From assembly GCF_003334335.1 (NCBI RefSeq), contig NZ_QOWQ01000047.1: a DNA stretch of 31,056 nt. One strand, written 5' to 3'. Source of the stretch: Escherichia coli. GTDB taxonomy: Bacteria; Pseudomonadota; Gammaproteobacteria; Enterobacterales; Enterobacteriaceae. The notes beneath the pieces are model-generated. The model was given only the letters and a program-made list of their open reading frames with translations. It was not told the DNA's origin and ran no database searches. The translations under genes and the position numbers were made by a program. Shown piece by piece: positions 1,290 through 12,731 of this stretch; positions within the stretch are counted from its first letter, which is position 1, and the number at the start of each line of letters is the position of its first letter.

Positions 1290-2021
1290 TCACCTGCCAT
1301 CCAGTAGACGCCCCGGCCCACGACTGCAACCATAATTACGTTGCCCGGAACCGTTATGCAACTTCGTTTCATTTTTCACGAGATAACGGGCTCTCTCCAG
1401 GGCTTTCTGCACCGCTTCCTTGTCACCACGCGTGACCCAGAGCACAGCGGATCCACCAGACTTTTTGTCAGAAGCCTTCCGGGTATCAGAACACCCACTT
1501 GGTAAAGGCGTGTCATCGGAAGAAGGGGGAGCAGCAGGTGATGTCGGTTTACGGGAAGGAGTCCACCTGGAAAAATGGACCAGCCCATCACCCAGCCAGG
1601 GCTCAATACGCAGGGCGCTGCACCATGCCTCCTGGATCAGCGTCGCCAGCGAAGAAGAAACGGTGAAATCCCCGAGCGAGCACCAGGTATCTTTGTTGAG
1701 CAGTAATATCACGTGATAATGTTTCCTGCCATACATCTTGCCGAACTCCCGGCACCAGAAATAACCCAGGCTGGTTGCATGCACACGCTGATTGGCACAT
1801 CTTTTTTTCCGCTGGTAAGCCTGAATTTTGGCTTTCAGGGATTCGAAAAAACGAGAAATCACCGCTGAATCCGGATCGGGCTCCATGATGGTGACAGGCA
1901 TATACTCAGGGAAACGTAAATCCACCCGGATTAACGAGACGGCACGGTGTTGCACCAGGGCACTGTTGAGAATACTTTCAAAACGGGATAACCAGTAATC
2001 ATTGTGTATTGGTTGATTCAT
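1290..2021 (-). CDS. YfjJ/YagK-family protein (Inovirus Gp2-like), typical of CP4-type cryptic prophage islands
   Basis: 243-aa ORF; family assigned from memory of K-12 CP4-57 and CP4-6 paralogs, not from an alignment. Several overlapping antisense ORFs were ignored. Confidence 0.55.
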   Translation of the reverse strand: MNQPIHNDYWLSRFESILNSALVQHRAVSLIRVDLRFPEYMPVTIMEPDPDSAVISRFFESLKAKIQAYQRKKRCANQRVHATSLGYFWCREFGKMYGRKHYHVILLLNKDTWCSLGDFTVSSSLATLIQEAWCSALRIEPWLGDGLVHFSRWTPSRKPTSPAAPPSSDDTPLPSGCSDTRKASDKKSGGSAVLWVTRGDKEAVQKALERARYLVKNETKLHNGSGQRNYGCSRGPGRLLDGR

Positions 2022-3221: not shown

Positions 3222-3234
3222 TCCTGAAGAAGAT

Positions 3235-3270
3235 GAACAGTTTATACTCTTTAAACTGTTCCCTTAATTT
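3235..3270 (+). terminator. Putative intrinsic terminator after the 176-aa ORF
   Basis: Perfect 10-bp inverted repeat GAACAGTTTA / TAAACTGTTC (3235-3244 and 3252-3261) with a 7-nt loop, followed by a T-rich tract. The stem is AT-rich, so strength is uncertain. Confidence 0.35.
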
Positions 3271-3761
3271 TAGAAAAACAGTTTGTGTAAGTGCATGCTC
3301 CAACATTCTGAAGGCGTTATTTCTTACAATACATCATAATCATTGGCAGATCCTCATCTGAATCAAAACACCACAACCAATCATCACACTTTTTCTGAAA
3401 AGAGCCTTATGATGAAGATAATCACCTTACGCTGAGAAAAAACACCAGGGCCAGTTAATCACCTTATCAATCTCGCCGTTACAAAATCATCCATAAGCCA
3501 TTTAACAGTGTTATCGCAAACTCACAGTAAATCGCATCAGGTTACCTCAATCGGATTTGAGTTAATTCACTGGGCTTTACGTAAAGATACTTTTCTCAAG
3601 CTAACGTCGAAACTCGAAATCTAAGGAAAGGTTAAACGTAACATCAGTAAAATCGAATAGCAGATTGATTGCTTAAACAGAAAGGTTTTACAGCAGCATT
3701 AAACTGATTTAGTTAACGTAAAGATTTACTAAACTGGATGTGTATAGCAATGCTTAACGAA

Positions 3762-3880
3762 AACACTTGTAGAAGTGTTTATGAAAATACGTGTATGTCT
3801 GGTAAAACACTTAGTAGAAAATACGTGTATAACACTTACTGAAATGCTTAGTAAAAATACTTAGTAAAATACGTGTATAT
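3762..3880. repeat. Cluster of direct repeats (three exact copies of AAAATACGTGTAT) plus a palindrome, inside a 1.16-kb AT-rich non-coding region
   Basis: Exact 13-mer at 3784-3796, 3818-3830 and 3866-3878 (spacing 34 and 48 bp); copies 2 and 3 share the extended unit CTTAGTA(G)AAAATACGTGTAT; palindrome AACACTT-gtag-AAGTGTT at 3762-3779. No ORF of 60 aa or more anywhere in 3222-4384. Confidence 0.6.
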
Positions 3881-4384
3881 AGTATCATACCGACATTCTC
3901 AACATCTTCAGACTTCCATACATACTGGGTGTTAATTTTTCACTTTTACAGCCAGCATGGAGTTTTCTGTCCTAAAAACAGAGCAGATTTACTCTGGAGT
4001 TATTTTCCTGTTCACGTATTCAGTACAGCAGAAATCCCGTGATAACGAGACAGTAAACCATCGTAATCAGCGTCTGTAACTCCATCGCTTTACCCCAGAA
4101 AAGTTAAGCCATATAATGTGAGGGATATAAGTCGTCGTATCCGGTAAGTACAGATAACCACAACATAAGCTCATTCAGTAAATTTTATCTCTGAACAAAC
4201 GACTATGGCATGCTCATTTATACTATTCATAAGAAAGTGTGATTATCTGTAAGCATTAACCATCAAATCATATAACCATACTAAACTGGCGGATCATCAG
4301 CACCATTAGCAGGTAACTTATTGAAATTTTATTATGTGTTTTTTGTTGATAATTAATATGCAATATGAATTTGATATTTTAGAA

Positions 4385-5608
4385 TCATGAACACCATTTA
4401 AAATTACCATCATTAATATCATATAAAAATATATTTTTACTAAAACATGAATTGTATATATTTATTAGCTCAGGAAAATTATCAGGGTTCACCTTCAAAT
4501 TAACCTGAATGTTATGCTTAATTTCACCCAGTAGTTCTTCATGTGTGGATTTTATTATCCCATTATTATAATCGATAAATGCACACATGTTTTTTATGAA
4601 TTCAAAACCTTTTCCTGTATACAGTTTAATGAATGCCACCAGAGCAAACATTTCAAGATGTAGCCATAATGCTACGTTAGTTTTTTGCAAAGTATAAAAA
4701 ATTGAATTCGCCACTTTTTTACTTATTGCTCTTTTATACTGTGATCGAGCAAGATTCAGTAGCGGAAGCTCTCGTTCAATAAATGAATGTGAAAAGACTG
4801 GATAAATTGATGTCGGAAACCTTTCAGGCCTTATGATATTTTCTATTTCCACCATAAATCTATCCATAGAAAGAAAGTCACTTTCTTTTTTTATTCTGGT
4901 ATAGAGACCGCCTTTATTCCTTTCTGAGGTTTGTTTTCGTGCTATCCCCCCTAACAATTTCTCTAATTGTTTATTTATCTTCGTATAATTAAATACAACC
5001 ATTCTTCTTATCATCCTCGGAAGGATAATAATATCAGTGCTTGAATCACTTGAACGGCAATTATTATTTATCCATGCAACTTCAAGTTGCAGTATCGGAA
5101 CATTAACTTTTCTGGGGTGAATATCACTCTGATATCGTTTTTTGTATGCGTTTTCATTAAGATATTCTCTGCTGTAGAGAAACTTATAGCAATATAATCT
5201 GATAATATCTTTTATGTAAAATTTAAATAGTTCACCTGTAACAGATATATGTTTTCTGCTCAGTAACTCCTGTGTATTAAGCCATTCCCGTGACCGAAGC
5301 ACACCCTTGTGAAAACTTTTTCTTACTTGCTTTGAGGCACGGCATTGATGTAATATTTTTGCGTCCTCAATAATTCTCTTTCCCGTTTTATTTTTTGCAG
5401 CATCTCTTACTCCATAAAATATCTCCCGGTCCAGACTTTTGTCATATTTACTGATTATACGACAAATATTCCTGACCCGACGATTCTCTTTATTTCGCTT
5501 CCATAGCTTATAATGATCATCGCATAACCTTAAGGCATTTGCCTCATCAAATTCTGAAACAGGATTACTGCATTTTTTATTCCGACAAATACCTTTGTTT
5601 TTAGCCAT
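4385..5608 (-). CDS. Orphan hypothetical protein (407 aa), strongly AT-rich, N-terminal Cys/His cluster (possible zinc-binding or HNH-like finger); candidate cargo or defence gene
   Basis: Long uninterrupted ORF with ATG at 5606-5608 and a GGAAG-like Shine-Dalgarno upstream. Composition is visibly far more AT-rich than flanking DNA. N-terminus reads C-x4-C-x15-C-DD-H. No family recognised. Confidence 0.6.
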   Translation of the reverse strand: MAKNKGICRNKKCSNPVSEFDEANALRLCDDHYKLWKRNKENRRVRNICRIISKYDKSLDREIFYGVRDAAKNKTGKRIIEDAKILHQCRASKQVRKSFHKGVLRSREWLNTQELLSRKHISVTGELFKFYIKDIIRLYCYKFLYSREYLNENAYKKRYQSDIHPRKVNVPILQLEVAWINNNCRSSDSSTDIIILPRMIRRMVVFNYTKINKQLEKLLGGIARKQTSERNKGGLYTRIKKESDFLSMDRFMVEIENIIRPERFPTSIYPVFSHSFIERELPLLNLARSQYKRAISKKVANSIFYTLQKTNVALWLHLEMFALVAFIKLYTGKGFEFIKNMCAFIDYNNGIIKSTHEELLGEIKHNIQVNLKVNPDNFPELINIYNSCFSKNIFLYDINDGNFKWCS

Positions 5609-5661
5609 ACTCTTCTTCCCGTCAATGGAAAAATTTTCACACCCATATTACCTGAATGATA

Positions 5662-5684
5662 AACCGGATTAGTGTGATCCGGTT
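5662..5684. promoter_or_regulatory. Perfect palindrome AACCGGAT-N7-ATCCGGTT in the divergent intergenic region between the 407-aa gene and the GTPase gene; candidate operator
   Basis: Arms at 5662-5669 and 5677-5684 are exact reverse complements. It lies in the 100-bp gap between two divergently oriented start codons (5608 and 5709). Function is inferred. Confidence 0.3.
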
Positions 5685-5708
5685 CAGTGAAATCAACAGG
5701 ATACCGGT

Positions 5709-7214
5709 ATGCCATTCAGCAATTCTTCCCTCTCCGCGCAAGTGAAATCATATCTGACGTTTCTTCCTGAAGAAATACGCCAGAAAATCCTTGAACATCT
5801 CCACGGTGTTATTCATTACGAGCCCGTGATTGGCATTATGGGTAAATCCGGCACCGGCAAGAGCAGCCTGTGTAATGCCATTTTTCAGTCCCGTATCTGC
5901 GCCACGCATCCCCTGAACGGCTGCACCCGCCAGGCTCATCGTCTTACCCTGCAGCTCGGTGAACGCAGAATGACGCTGGTCGATCTGCCCGGCATTGGTG
6001 AAACACCGCAGCATGATCAGGAATACCGAGCGCTTTATCGTCAGTTACTGCCGGAACTGGATCTGATTATCTGGATCCTGCGGAGTGATGAACGTGCGTA
6101 TGCTGCCGATATTGCCATGCATCAGTTTTTACTGAATGAGGGCGCAGATCCCTCGCGCTTTCTGTTTGTTCTCAGCCATGCCGATCGCATGTTTCCTGCT
6201 GAAGAATGGAATGCCACAGAAAAATGCCCGTCCCGTCACCAGGAACTCTCACTGGCGACAGTAACAGCCCGGGTGGCCACCCTGTTCCCTTCATCATTTC
6301 CGGTACTCCCCGTAGCCGCGCCTGCAGGCTGGAACCTTCCAGCGCTGGTGTCACTGATGATCCACGCGCTGCCACCACAGGCAACCAGCGCAGTTTATTC
6401 ACATATCCGGGGGGAAAACCACTCTGAACAGGCCCGGAAACACGCACAACTGACTTTTGGTGAAACCATCGGGAAAAGTTTTGACGACGCCGTTGCCCGT
6501 TTCAGTTTTCCGCCCTGGATGTTACAGCTTCTGCGCAAAACCCGGGACCGCATTATCCACCTGCTGTTCACTGTGGCATCCTTCTCCACCTCCGCCGGTA
6601 ACTGGGCTGTCAAAAACGGCTGGTGCCAGACCATGACGGAAGATGGTCAGGCGCTGGTAATGCTGAAAAATGGCACGATTGGTATTACCGGCCTGATGCA
6701 GGGATGCCCGAATGGCGTACAGACGCTCCTGGGCAGCCGTATCAGTATTAACGGTAACCTGATCCCCACATCACAAATGTGTAATCAGCAGACGGGATTC
6801 AGGGCTGTTGAGGTGGAAGTCGGACAGGCGCCGGAAATGGTCAAAAAAGCCGTTCACTCCATAGCAGAGCGTGATGTGTCCGTTTTACAGGCATTTGGTG
6901 TACGAATGGAATTCACCCGCGGTGATATGCTGAAGGTCTGTCCGAAATTTGTCACATCACTTGCCGGTTTTTCCCCGAAACAGACACCCGCCATTAATAA
7001 AGATTCCGTCCTGCAGGCTGCCCGGCAGGCATACGCCCGGGAATATGACGAGGAAACAACAGAAACCGCTGATTTTGGCTCTTACGAAGTAAAAGGCAAT
7101 AAGGTTGAGTTTGAAGTGTTCAATCCTGAAGACCGTGCGTACGACAAAGTGACCGTCACGGTTGGTGCTGACGGTAATGCCACCGGTGCCAGCGTTGAAT
7201 TTATCGGAAAATAG
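5709..7214 (+). CDS. YeeP/YfjP/YkfA-family P-loop GTPase with an extra ~210-aa C-terminal extension
   Basis: Walker A motif GKSGTGKSS near residue 45 and a DLPG motif; the N-terminal ~290 aa resemble K-12 CP4 GTPases (about 287 aa, from memory). The ORF runs on to 501 aa. Confidence 0.7.
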
Positions 7215-7219
7215 CTGGT

Positions 7220-7453
7220 ATGTCGGACTGTCACCCTGTTTTATTGCCCGAAGGCCCTTTCTCACGCGAACAGGCGATGGCTGTCACAACAGCTTACCGC
7301 AATGTGCTTATTGAAGATGATCAGGGAACGCATTTCCGGCTGGTTATCCGCAATGCTGAAGGGCAGCTACGCTGGCGGTGCTGGAATTTTGAACCTGATG
7401 CCGGAAAACAGCTTAATGCGGGGCTCGCCAGTGAGGGAATTCTCAGGCAATAA
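7220..7453 (+). CDS. DUF905-like small protein (YkfF-like) of the CP4 island backbone
   Basis: 77-aa ORF with ...[19 protein letters not shown]...HFRLV...WNFEPDAG..., recalled as the DUF905 family. From memory only. Confidence 0.5.
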
Positions 7454-7551
7454 ACGTCTTCATTTCATCCATCAGGCCACGTCTTCTCCGGGAGACGTGG
7501 CTTTTTCATTTATTACACCAGTAAATCTTAACCACCAATAAGGAGCAAATC

Positions 7552-8370
7552 ATGCGATTAGCAAGTCGTTTTGGTTATGCGAACCAGATACGCCGTGACC
7601 GCCCCTTAACTCGCGAAGAACTGATGCAGGTCGTCCCCAGCGTATTCGGGGAAGATAAGCACACATCCAGAAGCGAGAACTATACCTGGATCCCCACCAT
7701 CACAGTGCTGGAAAGCCTGCAGCGGGAAGGTTTTCAGCCATTCTTTGCCTGCCAGACCCGCGTACGTGACCCGGGCCGCCGGGGGTATACCAAACACATG
7801 CTGCGTCTGCGCCGTGACGGGGAGATAAACGGACAACATGTCCCTGAAATCATCCTGCTGAACTCCCATGACGGTACCTCCAGCTACCAGATGCTGCCGG
7901 GTTACTTCAGGTTCGTCTGCCAGAACGGCTGCGTCTGTGGTCAGTCTCTGGGGGAAGTGCGTGTTCCGCACCGGGGAAATGTGGTGGACAGAGTCATTGA
8001 AGGGGCTTACGAGGTGGTGGGCGTGTTTGACCGGATTGAGGAAAAGCGTGATGCCATGCAGTCGCTGATTCTGCCGCCACCGGCACGCCAGGCGCTGGCA
8101 CAGGCGGCACTGACTTACCGTTATGGTGACGAACATCAGCCCGTCACCACCGCCGACATTCTGACGCCACGACGCCGGGAGGATTACGGTAAGGACCTGT
8201 GGAGTGCTTATCAGACCATCCAGGAAAATATGCTGAAAGGCGGGATTTCCGGTCGCAGCGCTAAAGGAAAACGTATCCACACCCGTGCCATTCACAGCAT
8301 CGACACGGACATTAAGCTCAATCGCGCATTGTGGGTGATGGCAGAAACGCTGCTGGAGAGCATGCGCTGA
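7552..8370 (+). CDS. DUF932-family protein (YafZ/YfjQ-like)
   Basis: 272-aa ORF; length and position after the GTPase match CP4 island DUF932 genes. The antisense 275-aa ORF (7606-8433) was rejected. Confidence 0.6.
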   Translation: MRLASRFGYANQIRRDRPLTREELMQVVPSVFGEDKHTSRSENYTWIPTITVLESLQREGFQPFFACQTRVRDPGRRGYTKHMLRLRRDGEINGQHVPEIILLNSHDGTSSYQMLPGYFRFVCQNGCVCGQSLGEVRVPHRGNVVDRVIEGAYEVVGVFDRIEEKRDAMQSLILPPPARQALAQAALTYRYGDEHQPVTTADILTPRRREDYGKDLWSAYQTIQENMLKGGISGRSAKGKRIHTRAIHSIDTDIKLNRALWVMAETLLESMR

Positions 8371-8461
8371 TGCTGTTTCCCTGAAAGTGCAGCCCTGACT
8401 CACGTCTGTACCAGTCCCCAGGCATTCTTCCATTCATTTACTTTTTATAAGGAATCATCTC

Positions 8462-8947
8462 ATGACAACCTTTTCGCATAGCTCCACCACACCTTCTGTT
8501 TCCGTAACCACTGCATCAGGGAATAACCAGTCTCAACTGGTTGCCACCATAGTCCCTGATGAACAGCGCATCAGCTTCTGGCCGCAGCACTTTGGCCTCA
8601 TTCCACAGTGGGTGACCCTGGAGCCCCGTGTCTTCGGCTGGATGGACCGTCTGTGTGAAGACTACTGCGGTGGTATCTGGAATCTGTACACCCTGAATAA
8701 CGGCGGCGCATTTATGGCGCCCGAACCGGATGAAGATGATGACGAAACATGGGTACTGTTCAATGCCATGAACAGTAACCGCGCTGAAATGAGCCCGGAA
8801 GCCGCCGGCATTGCAGCCTGTCTGATGACGTACAGCCATCATGCCTGTCGTATGGAGTGTTATGCCATGACGGTCCATTATTACCGGCTGCGGGATTATG
8901 CCCTGCAGCATCCGGAATGCAGCGCCATTATGCGCATCATTGACTGA
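8462..8947 (+). CDS. Antirestriction protein, KlcA/ArdB-like (YfjX/YafX family)
   Basis: 161-aa ORF with an acidic stretch EPDEDDDE and the conserved position immediately upstream of the RadC-like gene. Confidence 0.65.
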   Translation: MTTFSHSSTTPSVSVTTASGNNQSQLVATIVPDEQRISFWPQHFGLIPQWVTLEPRVFGWMDRLCEDYCGGIWNLYTLNNGGAFMAPEPDEDDDETWVLFNAMNSNRAEMSPEAAGIAACLMTYSHHACRMECYAMTVHYYRLRDYALQHPECSAIMRIID

Positions 8948-8961
8948 AAGGGGCCGGAACA

Positions 8962-9438
8962 ATGCAACAGATTTCCTTTCTGCCCGGAGAAATGACGCCC
9001 GGTGAGCGCAGCCTCATTCAGCGGGCCCTGAAAACCCTGGACCGCCATCTTTATGAACCCGGCGTGGCCTTCACCTCCACGCATGCGGCACGGGAGTGGC
9101 TGATTCTGAACATGGCGGGACTGGAGCGGGAAGAGTTCCGGGTGCTGTATCTGAACAACCAGAATCAGCTGATTGCCGGTGAAACCCTTTTCACCGGCAC
9201 CATCAACCGCACGGAAGTCCATCCCCGGGAAGTGATTAAACGCGCCCTGTACCACAATGCCGCTGCCGTGGTACTGGCGCACAATCACCCGTCCGGTGAA
9301 GTCACACCCAGTAAGGCAGACCGGCTTATCACCGAACGTCTGGTACAGGCACTGGGCCTGGTGGATATCCGGGTGCCGGACCATCTGATAGTCGGTGGCA
9401 GCCAGGTTTTCTCCTTTGCCGAACATGGTCTGCTTTAA
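8962..9438 (+). CDS. RadC-like JAB/MPN-domain protein (YeeS/YkfG/YfjY family)
   Basis: 158-aa ORF containing the JAMM-type motif HNHPSG (...VVLAHNHPSGEVTPSKAD...). Confidence 0.75.
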   Translation: MQQISFLPGEMTPGERSLIQRALKTLDRHLYEPGVAFTSTHAAREWLILNMAGLEREEFRVLYLNNQNQLIAGETLFTGTINRTEVHPREVIKRALYHNAAAVVLAHNHPSGEVTPSKADRLITERLVQALGLVDIRVPDHLIVGGSQVFSFAEHGLL

Positions 9439-9500
9439 CCCGTCACAACCACATCACACCTGTTTTCACTTTTATCTTCTGTCTTCAGAGGTATCACACT

Positions 9501-9722
9501 ATGAAAATCATCACCCGTGGTGAAGCCATGCGTATTCACCGTCAGCATCCAGCATCCCGTCTTTTTCCGTTCTGTACCGGTAAATACCGCTGGCACGGTA
9601 GCACGGATACGTATACCGGCCGTGAAGTACAGGATATTCCCGGTGTGCTGGCCGTGTTTGCTGAACGCCGTAAGGACAGTTTTGGTCCGTATGTCCGGCT
9701 GATGAGCGTCACCCTGAACTGA
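9501..9722 (+). CDS. DUF987-family small protein (YeeT/YkfH-like)
   Basis: 73-aa ORF in the conserved position between the RadC-like gene and the CbeA-like antitoxin. Confidence 0.55.
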   Translation: MKIITRGEAMRIHRQHPASRLFPFCTGKYRWHGSTDTYTGREVQDIPGVLAVFAERRKDSFGPYVRLMSVTLN

Positions 9723-9801
9723 GTCTGGAAGGGCATTCAGAAGAGCAGAATTATCGCCACCACCGGACCATTCTTAACCAATTTTCTGTGAGGATTTTAT
9801 C

Positions 9802-10170
9802 GTGTCAGACACATTCTCCGGGACAACGCATCCCGATGACAATCACGACCGCCCCTGGTGGGGACTGCCCTGCACCGTGACGCCCTGTTTTGGTTCCCGT
9901 CTGGTACAGGAAGGCAACCGGTTGCATTACCTTGCCGACCGCGCCGGTATCAGAGGGCGGTTCAGCGACGCGGATTCGTACCACCTGGACCAGGCCTTTC
10001 CGCTGCTGATGAAACAACTGGAACTCATGCTCACCAGCGGTGAACTGAATCCCCGCCATCAGCATACCGTCACGCTGTATGCAAAAGGGCTGACCTGCGC
10101 AGCCGACACCCTCGGCAGTTGTGGCTACGTTTATATGGCTGTTTATCCGACGCCCGAAACGAAAAAGTAA
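9802..10170 (+). CDS. Type IV antitoxin of the CbeA/YeeU/YafW/YfjZ family
   Basis: 122-aa ORF directly upstream of a CbtA-like toxin gene; sequence pattern recalled as YeeU-like. Confidence 0.7.
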   Translation: MSDTFSGTTHPDDNHDRPWWGLPCTVTPCFGSRLVQEGNRLHYLADRAGIRGRFSDADSYHLDQAFPLLMKQLELMLTSGELNPRHQHTVTLYAKGLTCAADTLGSCGYVYMAVYPTPETKK

Positions 10171-10259
10171 CTCTCCAGAATAACCTTCTGCTCCGGCCTG
10201 GTGCTTTCACCACGCCACTTTTCCATTTTTCATCTCTGCATATCAGGAAAATCTTCAGT

Positions 10260-10637
10260 ATGAAAACATTACCTGTATTACCCGGGCTGGCGGCCAGTTC
10301 ACGCCCGTCTCCGGTTGAAATCTGGCAGACACTGCTCACCCGACTGCTGGATCAGCACTACGGCCTTACGCTGAATGACACACCATTCGCTGATGAACGT
10401 GTGATTGAGCAGCATATTGAGGCAGGCATTTCACTGTGTGATGCGGTGAACTTTCTCGTTGAAAAATACGCGCTGGTACGTACCGACCAGCCGGGATTCA
10501 GCGCCTGTACCCGTTCTCAGTTAATAAACAGTATTGATATCCTCCGGGCACGCCGGGCAACCGGCCTGATGACACGCGACAACTACAGAACGGTAAATAA
10601 CATTACCCTGGGTAAACATCCGGGGGCGAAACAATGA
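10260..10637 (+). CDS. Type IV toxin of the CbtA/YeeV/YkfI/YpjF family
   Basis: The track ORF starts at 10119, but the start consistent with the family is the ATG at 10260 (MKTLPVLPGLAAS...), giving about 125 aa and leaving a 90-bp gap after the antitoxin stop. Confidence 0.7.
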   Translation: MKTLPVLPGLAASSRPSPVEIWQTLLTRLLDQHYGLTLNDTPFADERVIEQHIEAGISLCDAVNFLVEKYALVRTDQPGFSACTRSQLINSIDILRARRATGLMTRDNYRTVNNITLGKHPGAKQ

Positions 10638-11056
10638 AACAGGCCCTGACGCTGGAAGCCGACAGCATTAATGCGCAGGCGCTGAACATGGGGCGCATTG
10701 TCGTTGACGTCGATGGTATTGAGCTCGCTGAACTGATTAACAAAGTCGCTGAAAACGGTTATTCACTCCGCGTGGTGGATGAACGTGACGCTACCGAAAC
10801 ACCGGCGACTTCTGCCAGCCCTCATCAGTTGCCGGAAGACAATACAGTGATACAGAGCGTGATGCCATTAACCACTGAAACAGCGCTGGATATCCTCATT
10901 GCGTGGCTGCAGGACAATATCGACTGCGAATCGGGAATTATCTTTGACAACGATGAGGATAAAACGGATTCGGCAGCACTGTTGCCCTGTATCGAACAGG
11001 CCCGGGAGGATGTCCGGACTCTTCGTCATCTGCAGCTTCTGCACCAGAACCGGTAA
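10634..11056 (+). CDS. YeeW-like protein (unknown function) downstream of the toxin
   Basis: 140-aa ORF whose ATG overlaps the toxin stop in an ATGA junction at 10634-10637; acidic composition. Confidence 0.45.
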   Translation: MKQALTLEADSINAQALNMGRIVVDVDGIELAELINKVAENGYSLRVVDERDATETPATSASPHQLPEDNTVIQSVMPLTTETALDILIAWLQDNIDCESGIIFDNDEDKTDSAALLPCIEQAREDVRTLRHLQLLHQNR

Positions 11057-11140
11057 ATATCACTCACCATACTTCATTCCACTGACGTCAGCCTGAACAG
11101 GGCTGGCGTTTTCGTTTATAAACCAAAAGGGAAACCGATC

Positions 11141-11983
11141 ATGTCAGACATCACAATCTCCCGTCCGGAAGTGGTCACCGGGCATACGGACGTTATCTGC
11201 TCAATCAGTATCCGCCACATTCTGGCTGTACGAAAGAGTACACTGCTGCAAATCGACACACTTATCCGGCAACTGGCTGAAATATCAGCAATGACAGAAA
11301 GTATTGGCGGTAAAGCCGCCCCGGACTGGGCCATGAAACAGGATTTTCGCTGCGGCTGCTGGCTGATGGAGAAACCGGAAACCGCAATGAAAGCCATCAC
11401 ACGCAATCTCGATCGCGAAATCTGGCGTGACCTGATGCAACGTTCAGGGATGCTTTCCTTAATGGATGCACAGGCCCGTGATACATGGTACCGGTCACTG
11501 GAGCACGATAATTTTCCGGAAATCAGTGAAGCGAACATTCTGAGCACATTTGAACAACTACACCAGAATAAGGATGAGGTGTTTGAGCGAGGGGTGATCA
11601 ACGTCTTCAGGGGACTGAACTGGAATTACAAAACCAATTGCCCCTGCAAATTTGGCAGTAAAATTATCGTCAACAACCTAGTGAGGTGGGACCGATGGGG
11701 GTTTCATCTTATCACCGGGCAACAGACTGACCGACTCGTCGACCTGGAAAGAATGCTACATCTGTTCAGCGGCAAACCGATCCCCGACAACCGGGAAAAC
11801 ATCACTATTCGTCTGGATGGTCACATCCAGTCCGTTCAGGGTAAAGAGCGCAATGAAGACGAGATGTTCATCATTAAATACTTTAAGAAGGGATCTGCAC
11901 ACATCACTTTCAAAAGGCTGGAACTGATTGACAGAATTAACGATATAATAGCCAGGTACTTTCCTTCTGTGCTCTCAGCCTGA
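11141..11983 (+). CDS. DUF4942-like protein, last gene of the island before the attachment-site repeat
   Basis: 280-aa ORF; the family name is recalled from annotations of similar islands and is not verified. The antisense ORF 11116-11601 was rejected. Confidence 0.5.
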   Translation: MSDITISRPEVVTGHTDVICSISIRHILAVRKSTLLQIDTLIRQLAEISAMTESIGGKAAPDWAMKQDFRCGCWLMEKPETAMKAITRNLDREIWRDLMQRSGMLSLMDAQARDTWYRSLEHDNFPEISEANILSTFEQLHQNKDEVFERGVINVFRGLNWNYKTNCPCKFGSKIIVNNLVRWDRWGFHLITGQQTDRLVDLERMLHLFSGKPIPDNRENITIRLDGHIQSVQGKERNEDEMFIIKYFKKGSAHITFKRLELIDRINDIIARYFPSVLSA

Positions 11984-12093: not shown

Positions 12094-12115
12094 TTCGATT
12101 CCGAGTCCGGCACCA
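12094..12115 (+). other. pheU: 3'-terminal 22-nt fragment of tRNA-Phe (pheU) without the rest of the gene: island attachment-site repeat (attR-type junction)
   Basis: TTCGATTCCGAGTCCGGCACCA matches the 3' end of E. coli tRNA-Phe (...GGTTCGATTCCGAGTCCGGGCACCA) with one G missing. The upstream bases are AT-rich island DNA, not tRNA. Confidence 0.6.
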
Positions 12116-12125
12116 AATTCATATA

Positions 12126-12155
12126 AACGGACCTCCACGGAGGTCCGTTTTTCGT
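12126..12155 (+). terminator. Intrinsic terminator (native pheU terminator) directly after the tRNA fragment
   Basis: AAACGGACCTCCACGGAGGTCCGTTTTTCG: a GC-rich stem (CGGACCT / AGGTCCG) followed by a T-run. Confidence 0.6.
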
Positions 12156-12731
12156 TTCAGGACGCCACGATTTAAGCGTTCTGCCTCCAAATCAATTCTA
12201 CCGAACTCAACCAGATTCTCCCCACATCACCAGCAATTTGCGGGCATATCCCAATTCGGGAAAATTTGTTCCTGAGCTATAGCACTAACTGACGTGAAAT
12301 GTCGTGCGGCCCCGTGATGCTGTTGAACGTCAAATGACGTCATCAGGAGCGTAACGCATCCATAAAGCACAACACCGGTCTGAACGGCGACTGATGAGAT
12401 TTTCTGAATGAGAACAAAGAGAAATGTATCAGTTCGCTTGCTCATGCAAAGACTAACAATCCATTAAAATAGTAAGTGCTCCGGACAATTTTCCATGGAT
12501 TATTTTCTGAACATTTTTCTTTGGCAAAGATGATGAATTTTGATGGTAAGGAATATTACTTCTGGTTCTCAGTAAAATCCTTTCGTAATACTATGTAATC
12601 AAGAAGTTTATGGCTGGTAAAAATAACGTCTTGCATTCACCAATAATATGTAAATAAACCCATCTATAGATGGTAAAAATAGGTTGTGGCAATTATCATT
12701 GCATCATTCCCTTTTCGAATGAGTTTCTATT

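Follow-up and report, generated by a model that had tools for sequence, protein, structure and literature searches.

An intact ArdB and RadC-like backbone block near the distal end of a CP4-like pheU island in Escherichia coli

What does an intact run of small antirestriction and DUF genes tell about the island that carries it, and which role is it likely to play there? We addressed this question for the block at 7220-9722 of a 31,056-nucleotide stretch of Escherichia coli DNA (contig NZ_QOWQ01000047.1), which is called the window here. A preliminary description had listed five same-strand ORFs with short gaps. The coordinates proved to be exact. The block consists of five + strand genes in the order DUF905, DUF932, ArdB-type antirestriction, RadC-like JAB, and DUF987, and the intergenic gaps are 98, 91, 14, and 62 nt. 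These features and their neighbors are given in Table 1.

Table 1 Features of the block and its surroundings in the window
Feature	Position	Strand	Length	Remarks
Upstream fused ORF	5709-7214	+	501 aa	YeeP/YfjP-like GTPase in frame with a 225-aa protein of unknown function
DUF905 (YkfF-like) gene	7220-7453	+	77 aa, 234 nt	
Terminator-like hairpin	7474-7503	+		13-bp stem with 7 G-C pairs, then T run; after DUF905; from consensus scan and inverted repeat
DUF932 (YafZ/YfjQ/YubP-like) gene	7552-8370	+	272 aa, 819 nt	
ArdB-type antirestriction gene	8462-8947	+	161 aa, 486 nt	
RadC-like JAB (JAMM) domain gene	8962-9438	+	158 aa, 477 nt	
DUF987 (YeeT-like) gene	9501-9722	+	73 aa, 222 nt	
CbeA/YeeU-type antitoxin gene	9802-10170	+	122 aa	GTG start; Pfam CbeA_antitoxin E 2.6e-51; 90% to K-12 CbeA
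CbtA/YeeV-type toxin gene	10260-10637	+	125 aa	Pfam CbtA_toxin E 3.9e-56; 96% to K-12 CbtA
Truncated DUF5983 ORF	10634-11056	+	140 aa	DUF5983 N-terminal domain reads into DUF957; Pfam recognizes DUF5983_N only
attR, right end of island	12095-12116	+	22 nt	Repeat of pheU tRNA 3' end, one G missing; read directly in sequence

The five genes are intact, as had been proposed. Pfam families were assigned in a single scan of the five proteins concatenated end to end, and each protein covered nearly the whole of its model with E values from 3e-28 to 6e-50, which is far beyond chance. In strain MB98, RefSeq annotates the five CDSs with the very same lengths (234, 819, 486, 477, and 222 nt). A comparison with the K-12 paralogues of CP4-6, CP4-44, and CP4-57 had been suggested as the check for frameshifts and truncations. 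The five genes align end to end with these paralogues, with no frameshift, internal stop, or truncation, and are hence not fragments of longer genes. Against close as well as distant paralogues, dN/dS is 0.07-0.18 for all five genes, which indicates that purifying selection acts on each of them. Two long ORFs on the opposite strand (7606-8433 and 8896-9426) were examined as possible overlapping genes and rejected; they are interrupted in the paralogues and are therefore shadow ORFs.

The DUF905 gene starts 5 nt past the stop of the upstream fused ORF. Its product matches positions 2-68 of the 70 in the Pfam model (E 2.8e-28) and the structure of YkfF (PDB 2HJJ, E 2e-27) and is 61% identical to K-12 YkfF end to end. 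Both the domain and the structure match place it in DUF905 (PF06006; YkfF).

The DUF932 protein covers positions 1-227 of the 227-position model (E 6e-50), is 76% identical to K-12 YfjQ and YafZ, and has a dN/dS of 0.07. Residues P29, C123, N125, H140, and G230 are invariant among 101 diverse members, the window protein included. The full-length domain together with these residues makes it a member of DUF932 (PF06067; YafZ/YfjQ/YubP). An AF2 model (pLDDT 93.3) gave no fold match in the PDB.

The DUF987 protein matches all of its model (PF06174; YeeT/YkfH/YpjJ; positions 1-65 of 65, E 3.8e-37) and is 93% identical to YeeT over 73/73 residues. Its model gave no solved-fold match, and PDB sequence searches with DUF932 and DUF987 returned no significant match.

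The antirestriction protein belongs to the ArdB/KlcA family (PF03230), with a full-length Antirestrict domain (positions 1-92 of 92, E 3.7e-35) and a match to a solved structure. This structure is PDB 2WJ9, which aligns with residues 14-161 (E 6e-97) at about 97% identity over residues 25-161, whereas KlcA (PDB 2KMG) matches only with E 1e-19. Judged by these alignments, the protein is ArdB of the island type and not KlcA. The earlier label of KlcA-like was thus imprecise, while the assignments to DUF905, DUF932, RadC-like JAB, and DUF987 stand. Island ArdB proteins (YfjX, YafX, and ORF14 of CFT073 PAI II) blocked Type I restriction of all four families in vivo while leaving modification uninhibited, and the alleviation is indirect (PMC2836571). 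The window ArdB is 67% identical to YfjX and 65% to YafX and would by analogy alleviate Type I restriction.

The RadC-like protein covers positions 2-121 of the 121-position Pfam RadC JAB model (E 4.9e-43) and was the only one of the five proteins with a match in an NCBIfam search. The TIGR00608 score is 149.5 bits at a cut-off of 133.85, and as the profile matches in its C-terminal part only, the protein has no HhH N-domain. PDB 2QLC matches with E 4e-25, and the JAMM residues align with it. The HNHPSG metal-binding motif had been reported as retained, and indeed it is present within HNHPSGEVTPSKAD (residues 107-120, nt 9280-9321), with Glu90 upstream in HPRE. The motif takes the form E90...H107-x-H109...S117-x-x-D120, in agreement with the pattern E...HxH-x7-S-xx-D of the RadC-like JAB family (PF04002 / TIGR00608), to which the protein belongs. 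The profile of canonical RadC/YicR (NF000642 equivalog; full length about 220 aa) gave 159.5 bits against a cut-off of 180 and matched at positions 88-211 of 212, and the window protein has 158 aa. By these scores it is an island-type RadC-family paralogue and not the housekeeping RadC. Its identities are 98% to YeeS, 82% to YkfG, and 78% to YfjY/LfgB (over 140 aa).

Iyer and colleagues reportedly predicted a nucleic-acid substrate for RadC-like JAB proteins from genomic context. Protease activity has been claimed for LfgB, which is YfjY of CP4-57, and for YfjY only (PMC10846083). The two published ideas, protease and nucleic-acid enzyme, disagree. PADLOC gave zero matches for any of the five proteins; thus, they are not known defence-system components.

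Next to intactness stands the question whether the block acts as one unit. It probably does not, because a strong terminator-like hairpin follows DUF905 and because the recurring unit is ArdB-RadC-DUF987-CbeA-CbtA. The hairpin would separate transcription units, and the consensus scan found no terminator-like site on the + strand in 7552-11084. A sigma-70 scan gave no convincing + strand promoter within the block and counted fewer sites in the region than in shuffled sequence on average. An AAGGAG ribosome-binding site precedes the DUF932 gene. We drew operon boundaries from the terminator-like site and synteny only. Rfam at gathering thresholds and a tRNA scan, both over the whole window, found nothing, and the gaps hold no known RNA element.

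The ArdB-RadC-DUF987-antitoxin-toxin order occurs in CP4-6, CP4-57, CP4-44 (partial), MB98, TUM9754, and the IncHI1B plasmid p8025, and ArdB to CbtA therefore appears to form the recurring unit. Its K-12 forms are yafX-ykfG-ykfH-yafW-ykfI and yfjX-yfjY-ypjJ-yfjZ-ypjF; the latter has been named the lfgABCDE operon (PMC10846083). The CbeA gene lies outside the span of the preliminary description and apparently within this unit.

The block lies near the integrase-distal end of its island. Core cadC follows attR, the K-12 gene order is pheU-yjdQ-cadC, and a 22-bp pheU/pheV direct repeat has been described at island ends (PMC6174562). The CP4-like backbone is thus bounded by a tRNA 3'-end repeat, and it is syntenic with the pheU island of TUM9754. 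The window starts inside the island; the tRNA scan found no tRNA gene in it, and no integrase was present among the ORFs examined. Further upstream, a low-GC neighbor of 407 aa (4385-5608) is an orphan after searches of four family libraries and 5.8 billion proteins. ORF 464-907 looks like joined fragments.

The intact module had been taken to suggest a relatively undecayed island and, with it, cargo that is more likely to be functional. This step failed, as both flanks carry gene-fusing deletions. In MB98 and TUM9754, the two components of the upstream fused ORF are encoded by separate genes, and Pfam recognizes only the N-terminal GTPase domain of the fused ORF. The fusion arose by a deletion of about 175 bp, and an imperfect direct repeat of about 20 bp marks the junction, near 6560-6580. 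In the top E. coli matches, the junction always aligned in two pieces, which span 376 bp compared with 201 bp in the window. On the other flank, the DUF5983 ORF lacks about 275 nt relative to MB98, and the same DUF5983/DUF957 arrangement occurs in TUM9754, where RefSeq lists it as a pseudogene of truncated DUF5983. Moreover, K-12 CP4-6 is full of IS elements and pseudogenes and still has all five families intact. With such dN/dS values, the module is maintained by selection on its own genes, and intactness is hence a poor proxy for cargo. Caution is needed here, as the five genes give no guide to the function of their neighbors.

That the block is conserved CP4 backbone and not novel was borne out by its prevalence. 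Of 5426 complete E. coli genomes, 4888 contain a match to the block, at a median of 3 and at most 18 places in a genome; 4324 of them have 80% or more of its length at a single place. The best DNA identity is 97.4%. As the standard backbone at the distal end of a P4-integrase-type island, here at pheU, the block is already known and ordinary. As a finding, it carries little weight; it is a routine CP4-type island marker that can be annotated by homology. Its use is that of a landmark, which shows where a pheU island ends on the side away from the integrase and identifies the window as E. coli-like chromosome. A wider question is not specific to the window: the uncharacterized DUF932, DUF905, and DUF987 are among the commonest accessory genes of E. 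coli, and thousands of resistance plasmids carry two of these three families (DUF932 and DUF905) in their leading region.

Regarding the role, we consider it most likely that this distal backbone of a CP4-like pheU island serves establishment in a new host and then maintenance. This reading builds on the identity and intactness of the genes, on purifying selection and synteny, and on homology with plasmids; operon structure, expression timing, and the activities of the window copy are predictions. ArdB would block Type I restriction of incoming DNA in an indirect manner. The RadC-like JAMM metalloenzyme, presumably co-transcribed, would process a host or element macromolecule, and DUF987 may be a small partner protein. 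The CbeA/CbtA type IV toxin-antitoxin pair, within the ArdB unit, would stabilize the island. DUF905 and DUF932, located upstream in apparently separate transcription units, probably act early after transfer. [quoted passage not shown] Retention of several copies in long-immobile islands could equally well reflect a benefit for the host.

A further-reaching reading, possible but doubtful, regards the backbone as an integrated "leading region." DUF932 and DUF905 would then be establishment or anti-defence factors common to IncF plasmids, jumbo phages, and CP4-type islands, and the islands would be mobilized, now or once, as ssDNA by hitch-hiking on conjugative elements. DUF932 homologues with 62-65% identity are found on at least 5000 plasmids, at least 4457 of them conjugative, and correspond to YubP beside oriT and traM. 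DUF905 adjoins ssb in IncF leading regions, with 51-53% identity to the window protein. The window itself has only this homology of DUF932 and DUF905 and not the conjugative leading-region gene set, which is defined by its position at oriT on the first-entering strand; a search for F-type oriT/nic in the window found none, and no means of transfer for the island is visible in it.

Alternatively, the genes may be kept for the benefit of the cell as a host-domesticated stress-response device, with the RadC-like protein acting as a protease like LfgB. For LfgB of CP4-57, degradation of the antitoxin MqsA has been reported, with derepression of rpoS as its consequence during oxidative, acid, and heat stress; the lfgB deletion phenotype was complemented, and MqsA binds the operon promoter (PMC10846083). 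The window protein has 78% identity to YfjY/LfgB with an intact JAMM motif, and a host benefit would agree with the purifying selection and with the several copies kept in islands that are immobile and decayed. However, the evidence comes from one study on one paralogue, and the window gene is nearest to yeeS (98%) and not to lfgB. Close RadC-like homologues next to ArdB on conjugative plasmids point to a role for the element, and 1650 conjugative plasmids carry RadC-like JAB genes. Given paralogous copies numbering three or more per genome, a single housekeeping role is unlikely. We therefore regard this alternative as unlikely as well, although it is compatible with the establishment and maintenance role and does not exclude it.

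RadC-like, DUF987, and perhaps ArdB could also be accessory regulators or modulators of CbtA/CbeA. In that case, the unit would amount to an enlarged addiction module in which only ArdB has an anti-defence role. The constant order and tight spacing with the toxin-antitoxin pair on chromosomes and on plasmid p8025 fit this idea. DUF987 (285 clusters, 58 plasmids) is almost confined to the ArdB-RadC-CbeA-CbtA context, and the LfgB study links a JAB protein to antitoxin degradation (PMC10846083). Against it, plasmids of about 63-85 kb carry RadC-like JAB genes (as recorded at the level of whole plasmids), and DUF932 and DUF905 lie in annotated IncF leading regions in which no CbtA/CbeA was seen. 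In TUM9754, a further gene separates DUF987 from the antitoxin. The function of CbtA/CbeA has been reconstituted in the absence of the RadC-like, DUF987, and ArdB genes. We consider this idea improbable.

Finally, DNA-repair functions or decaying, functionless relics, as suggested by the RadC name, the PHROG label "DNA repair protein," and the term cryptic prophages for the islands, are largely refuted and very improbable, since the radC repair phenotype is disputed (Attaiech 2008, as cited in PMC5512222), the window protein lacks the N-terminal part of canonical RadC/YicR and scores below the equivalog cut-off, and the full-length ORFs with their low dN/dS (0.07-0.18) contradict decay.

Among known islands, K-12 CP4-44 (yeeS-yeeT-cbeA-cbtA-yeeW) is close in sequence for the genes it has in common with the window (RadC-like 98%, DUF987 93%, CbeA 90%, CbtA 96%), and their order is the same. 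CP4-44 differs in its chromosomal site and lacks DUF905, DUF932, and ArdB, and its yeeS overlaps yeeR at the 5' end and is shorter there by 10 codons. CP4-6 (yafZ...ykfF-yafX-ykfG-ykfH-yafW-ykfI) and CP4-57 (yfjQ...yfjX-yfjY-ypjJ-yfjZ-ypjF) have all five families and the ArdB-to-toxin order of the window, but are no more than 61-82% identical to the window genes. In K-12, DUF932 comes first, and several genes, of the yafY/ykfB type, separate it from DUF905, whereas DUF905 directly precedes DUF932 in the window. CP4-57 carries DUF905 as a pseudogene (ypjI) and has a shorter ypjJ.

The islands of TUM9754 (at pheU) and MB98 (by yghD/gsp) have the order of the window: GTPase, hypothetical, DUF905, DUF932, antirestriction, JAB, DUF987, YeeU, CbtA, DUF5983, DUF957, DUF4942, and attR. 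Islands of the pheU, pheV, and selC type are present in both pathogenic and commensal E. coli and are described in STEC (PMC6174562). The listed E. coli genomes lack the GTPase-fusing deletion of the window, and compared with TUM9754, the window lacks an HTH regulator gene and the extra antitoxin-like gene. Identity to the syntenic TUM9754 island is 92.6% in the module segment but 98.2-98.5% in the flanks, which indicates exchange between paralogous islands.

ArdB of pKM101 and KlcA of IncP have the Pfam family (PF03230) and the fold in common with the window ArdB. KlcA (2KMG) is distant, with about 30-35% identity by eye in the alignment, and the island proteins additionally have a variable tail of about 20 residues at the N terminus.

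The IncF leading region reads ssb, DUF905, ParB-like, psiB-psiA ... methylase, yubP (DUF932), DUF5983, yubQ, and oriT. Gene order and neighbors differ from the window, which lacks ssb, psiB, and an F-type oriT, while the annotated IncF plasmid regions lack DUF987 and CbtA/CbeA. Common to both are DUF932 and DUF905, at the identities given above, and a DUF5983-family gene, and in both, DUF905 and DUF932 stand alongside anti-restriction or protective functions.

The five same-strand ORFs of the block at 7220-9722 belong to the DUF905, DUF932, antirestriction, RadC-like JAB and DUF987 families, as the preliminary description had proposed. Their coordinates are exact, and a Pfam scan of the five proteins, concatenated end to end, gave matches far beyond chance (see the table). 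Each of the five family memberships was tested and confirmed. The intergenic gaps are 98, 91, 14 and 62 nt in the 5' to 3' direction, and a ribosome-binding site is recognisable at four of the five genes. The annotation of the block is correct and already known.

Genes of the block and of the region downstream, with Pfam matches and identities to E. coli K-12 paralogues
Gene	Length (aa)	Position	Strand	Pfam match (model positions)	K-12 paralogues (protein identity)
DUF905	77	7220-7453	+	DUF905, E 2.8e-28 (2-68 of 70)	YkfF 61%
DUF932	272	7552-8370	+	DUF932, E 6e-50 (1-227 of 227)	YfjQ and YafZ 76% (271 of 272)
Antirestriction (ArdB)	161	8462-8947	+	Antirestrict PF03230, E 3.7e-35 (1-92 of 92)	YfjX 67%; YafX 65%
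RadC-like JAB	158	8962-9438	+	E 4.9e-43 (2-121 of 121)	YeeS 98%; YkfG 82% (158 of 158 residues); YfjY 78%
DUF987	73	9501-9722	+	DUF987, E 3.8e-37 (1-65 of 65)	YeeT 93% (73 of 73); YkfH 67%
CbeA, downstream		9802-10170
CbtA, downstream		10260-10637
DUF5983/DUF957 ORF, downstream	140	10634-11056	+
DUF4942, downstream		11141-11983

Every block protein can be aligned end to end with its paralogues in the K-12 islands CP4-6, CP4-44 and CP4-57; the genes are full length and not fragments of longer ones. The CDS lengths equal the RefSeq annotation in E. coli MB98, the closest genome, and dN/dS is 0.07-0.18 for each computable gene (Nei-Gojobori; near-identical copies and paralogues, synonymous sites being saturated in the latter). 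Hence, by these sequence criteria, the ORFs are real genes under selection. Long antisense ORFs that overlap DUF932 and RadC were also considered as genes. They are broken in the paralogues and were rejected as shadow ORFs.

The proposed step from an intact module to an undecayed island did not hold, as gene-fusing deletions lie nearby and the decayed CP4-6 of K-12, rich in IS elements and pseudogenes, keeps all five families intact. At 5709-7214 (+), a YeeP/YfjP-like GTPase and the gene after it are fused in frame into one ORF of 501 aa, whereas the MB98 counterparts are separate proteins of 294 and 225 aa. The fusion arose when about 175 bp were deleted between imperfect direct repeats near 6560-6580 (about 20 bp; CCTGCTGnTCAC..CTGTGG); the GTPase lost its C-terminus, and the second protein part of its signal-peptide-like N-terminus. 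In the best-matching complete E. coli genomes, the junction is covered only by two pieces that lie apart. In the ORF at 10634-11056, the DUF5983 N-terminal domain is joined to DUF957 via about 27 unrelated residues, and the DUF5983 C-terminal domain is lost. The same arrangement in E. coli TUM9754 is entered in RefSeq as a truncated DUF5983 pseudogene, with DUF957 as a gene of its own after it. The separate halves of the ORF at 464-907 (-, 147 aa) match two different PHROG families, so that it looks like joined gene fragments.

A 22-nt tRNA-Phe 3' end (pheU), minus one G, lies at 12095-12116 (+) and marks the right end of the island; such a direct repeat closes pheU and pheV islands (PMC6174562). 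Past it follow the core genes cadC, cadB, cadA, dtpC, lysU and dcuSR. Hence, the block forms the backbone of a pheU island at the end distal to the integrase. The left edge of the window falls inside the island; a tRNA gene is absent from the window, and the ORFs examined yielded no integrase. The pheU terminator hairpin (12125-12150) comes right after the attR repeat. Judging from where it lies in TUM9754 and K-12 (yjdQ), a P4-type integrase fragment, the fossil of an earlier island, is expected at about 12310-12470, between attR and cadC.

Among 5426 complete E. coli genomes, 4888 match the block, at a median of three and at most 18 places per genome, and in 4324 a single place holds 80% of it or more. 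As had been noted, the block belongs to the well-described CP4-type island backbone and is not novel. The annotation of the TUM9754 pheU island, and of an MB98 island adjoining yghD/gsp, shows the same gene order. Identity to the syntenic TUM9754 island is 92.6% at 6560-9763 but 98.2-98.5% in both flanks, and the best match of the module in complete genomes (97.4%) sits at that other locus in MB98. These sequence comparisons point to a mosaic module, formed by exchange between paralogous islands.

The left part of the island carries other genes. The 407-aa ORF at 4385-5608 (-), which runs divergently to the GTPase gene, is orphan cargo with a very low G+C content (32.5%, GC3 27%). It has no match in Pfam, PHROG, PADLOC or NCBIfam, and its relatives form only 16 clusters in 5.8 billion proteins, in E. 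coli, with a few at 33-37% identity in Citrobacter and Klebsiella. It is kept in the TUM9754 pheU island. Between it and a 176-aa ORF lies a low-GC stretch of about 1.1 kb (3222-4384) with no ORF of at least 100 aa and no Rfam match; the corresponding part of TUM9754 has no gene annotated. The product of the 243-aa ORF at 1290-2021 (-) is of the YagK/YfjJ type ("inovirus Gp2 family"). The stretch similar to the TUM9754 island ends at position 1247, where TUM9754 has an IS2.

The RadC-like protein retains the HNHPSG metal-binding motif noticed earlier, within HNHPSGEVTPSKAD (residues 107-120, nt 9280-9321). Together with Glu90, this gives the complete JAMM signature E...HxH-x7-S-xx-D, which aligns with the RadC-homologue structure 2QLC. 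The protein is therefore classed, from its sequence, as a JAMM metalloenzyme. It is not a canonical RadC (YicR): the N-terminal region is absent, and the score lies above the subfamily cut-off and below the equivalog cut-off. RadC-like JAB genes are present on 2336 plasmids. The label "KlcA-like" stood as to the antirestriction family but not as to KlcA, as the protein is ArdB (PDB 2WJ9, E 6e-97, vs KlcA 2KMG, E 1e-19), with four differences from 2WJ9 across residues 25-161. By homology, it is predicted to inhibit Type I restriction indirectly.

A hairpin with a 13-bp stem and a T run lies 3' of DUF905 (7474-7503); the + strand at 7552-11084 showed no terminator-like site. A different gene set, ArdB-RadC-DUF987-antitoxin-toxin, recurs in CP4-6, CP4-57 and the IncHI1B conjugative plasmid p8025, and partially in CP4-44; the CP4-57 copy has been described as the lfgABCDE operon (PMC10846083). 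Because of this hairpin and this recurring set, 7220-9722 is probably not a single unit. In p8025, the entire ArdB-RadC-DUF987-YeeU-CbtA unit occupies 4020-5920, with gaps of 9-20 nt.

Anti-defence genes are concentrated in plasmid leading regions (PMC11541004), and homologues of two block genes occur there. At least 5000 plasmids, of which 4457 are conjugative, carry DUF932 homologues (62-65% identity); the plasmid protein is YubP, and in the IncF leading region its gene adjoins yubQ, oriT and traM. A DUF905 homologue (51-53%) adjoins ssb in IncF leading regions, which also hold a DUF5983 gene, near oriT with DUF932. Hence, we consider it rather likely that ArdB, the RadC-like protein, DUF932 and DUF905 would form an establishment module, joined to the addiction module CbeA/CbtA. 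Domestication for stress response, in the manner of LfgB, is compatible with this reading and rather unlikely; for the paralogue LfgB (YfjY), protease activity was reported, with MqsA as degraded target (PMC10846083). For RadC-like JAB proteins, Iyer and colleagues predicted nucleic-acid processing from genomic context (PMC5512222). That the genes are accessory factors of the toxin-antitoxin system, with which three of them recur, is improbable. DNA repair or inert relics are largely refuted and very improbable for genes that include no canonical RadC and evolve at such dN/dS.

Beyond the establishment reading, the backbone might, tentatively, be an integrated leading region with DUF932 and DUF905 as uncharacterised establishment factors. 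A search of the window for an F-type oriT found none, and on that test the block is not part of an oriT-adjacent leading region; the question is general to the DUF932 and DUF905 families, with nothing particular to this window. In a K. pneumoniae IncF plasmid, DUF905 lies beside ssb, and DUF932 and DUF5983 lie beside oriT (689-931 and 9001-10184). DUF932 homologues at 38-40% occur in jumbo phages; DUF987 is rare and nearly confined to Enterobacterales. The nearest relative of the 3' half of the block is CP4-44, and the nearest relatives of the entire block are pheU and pheV islands of other E. coli.
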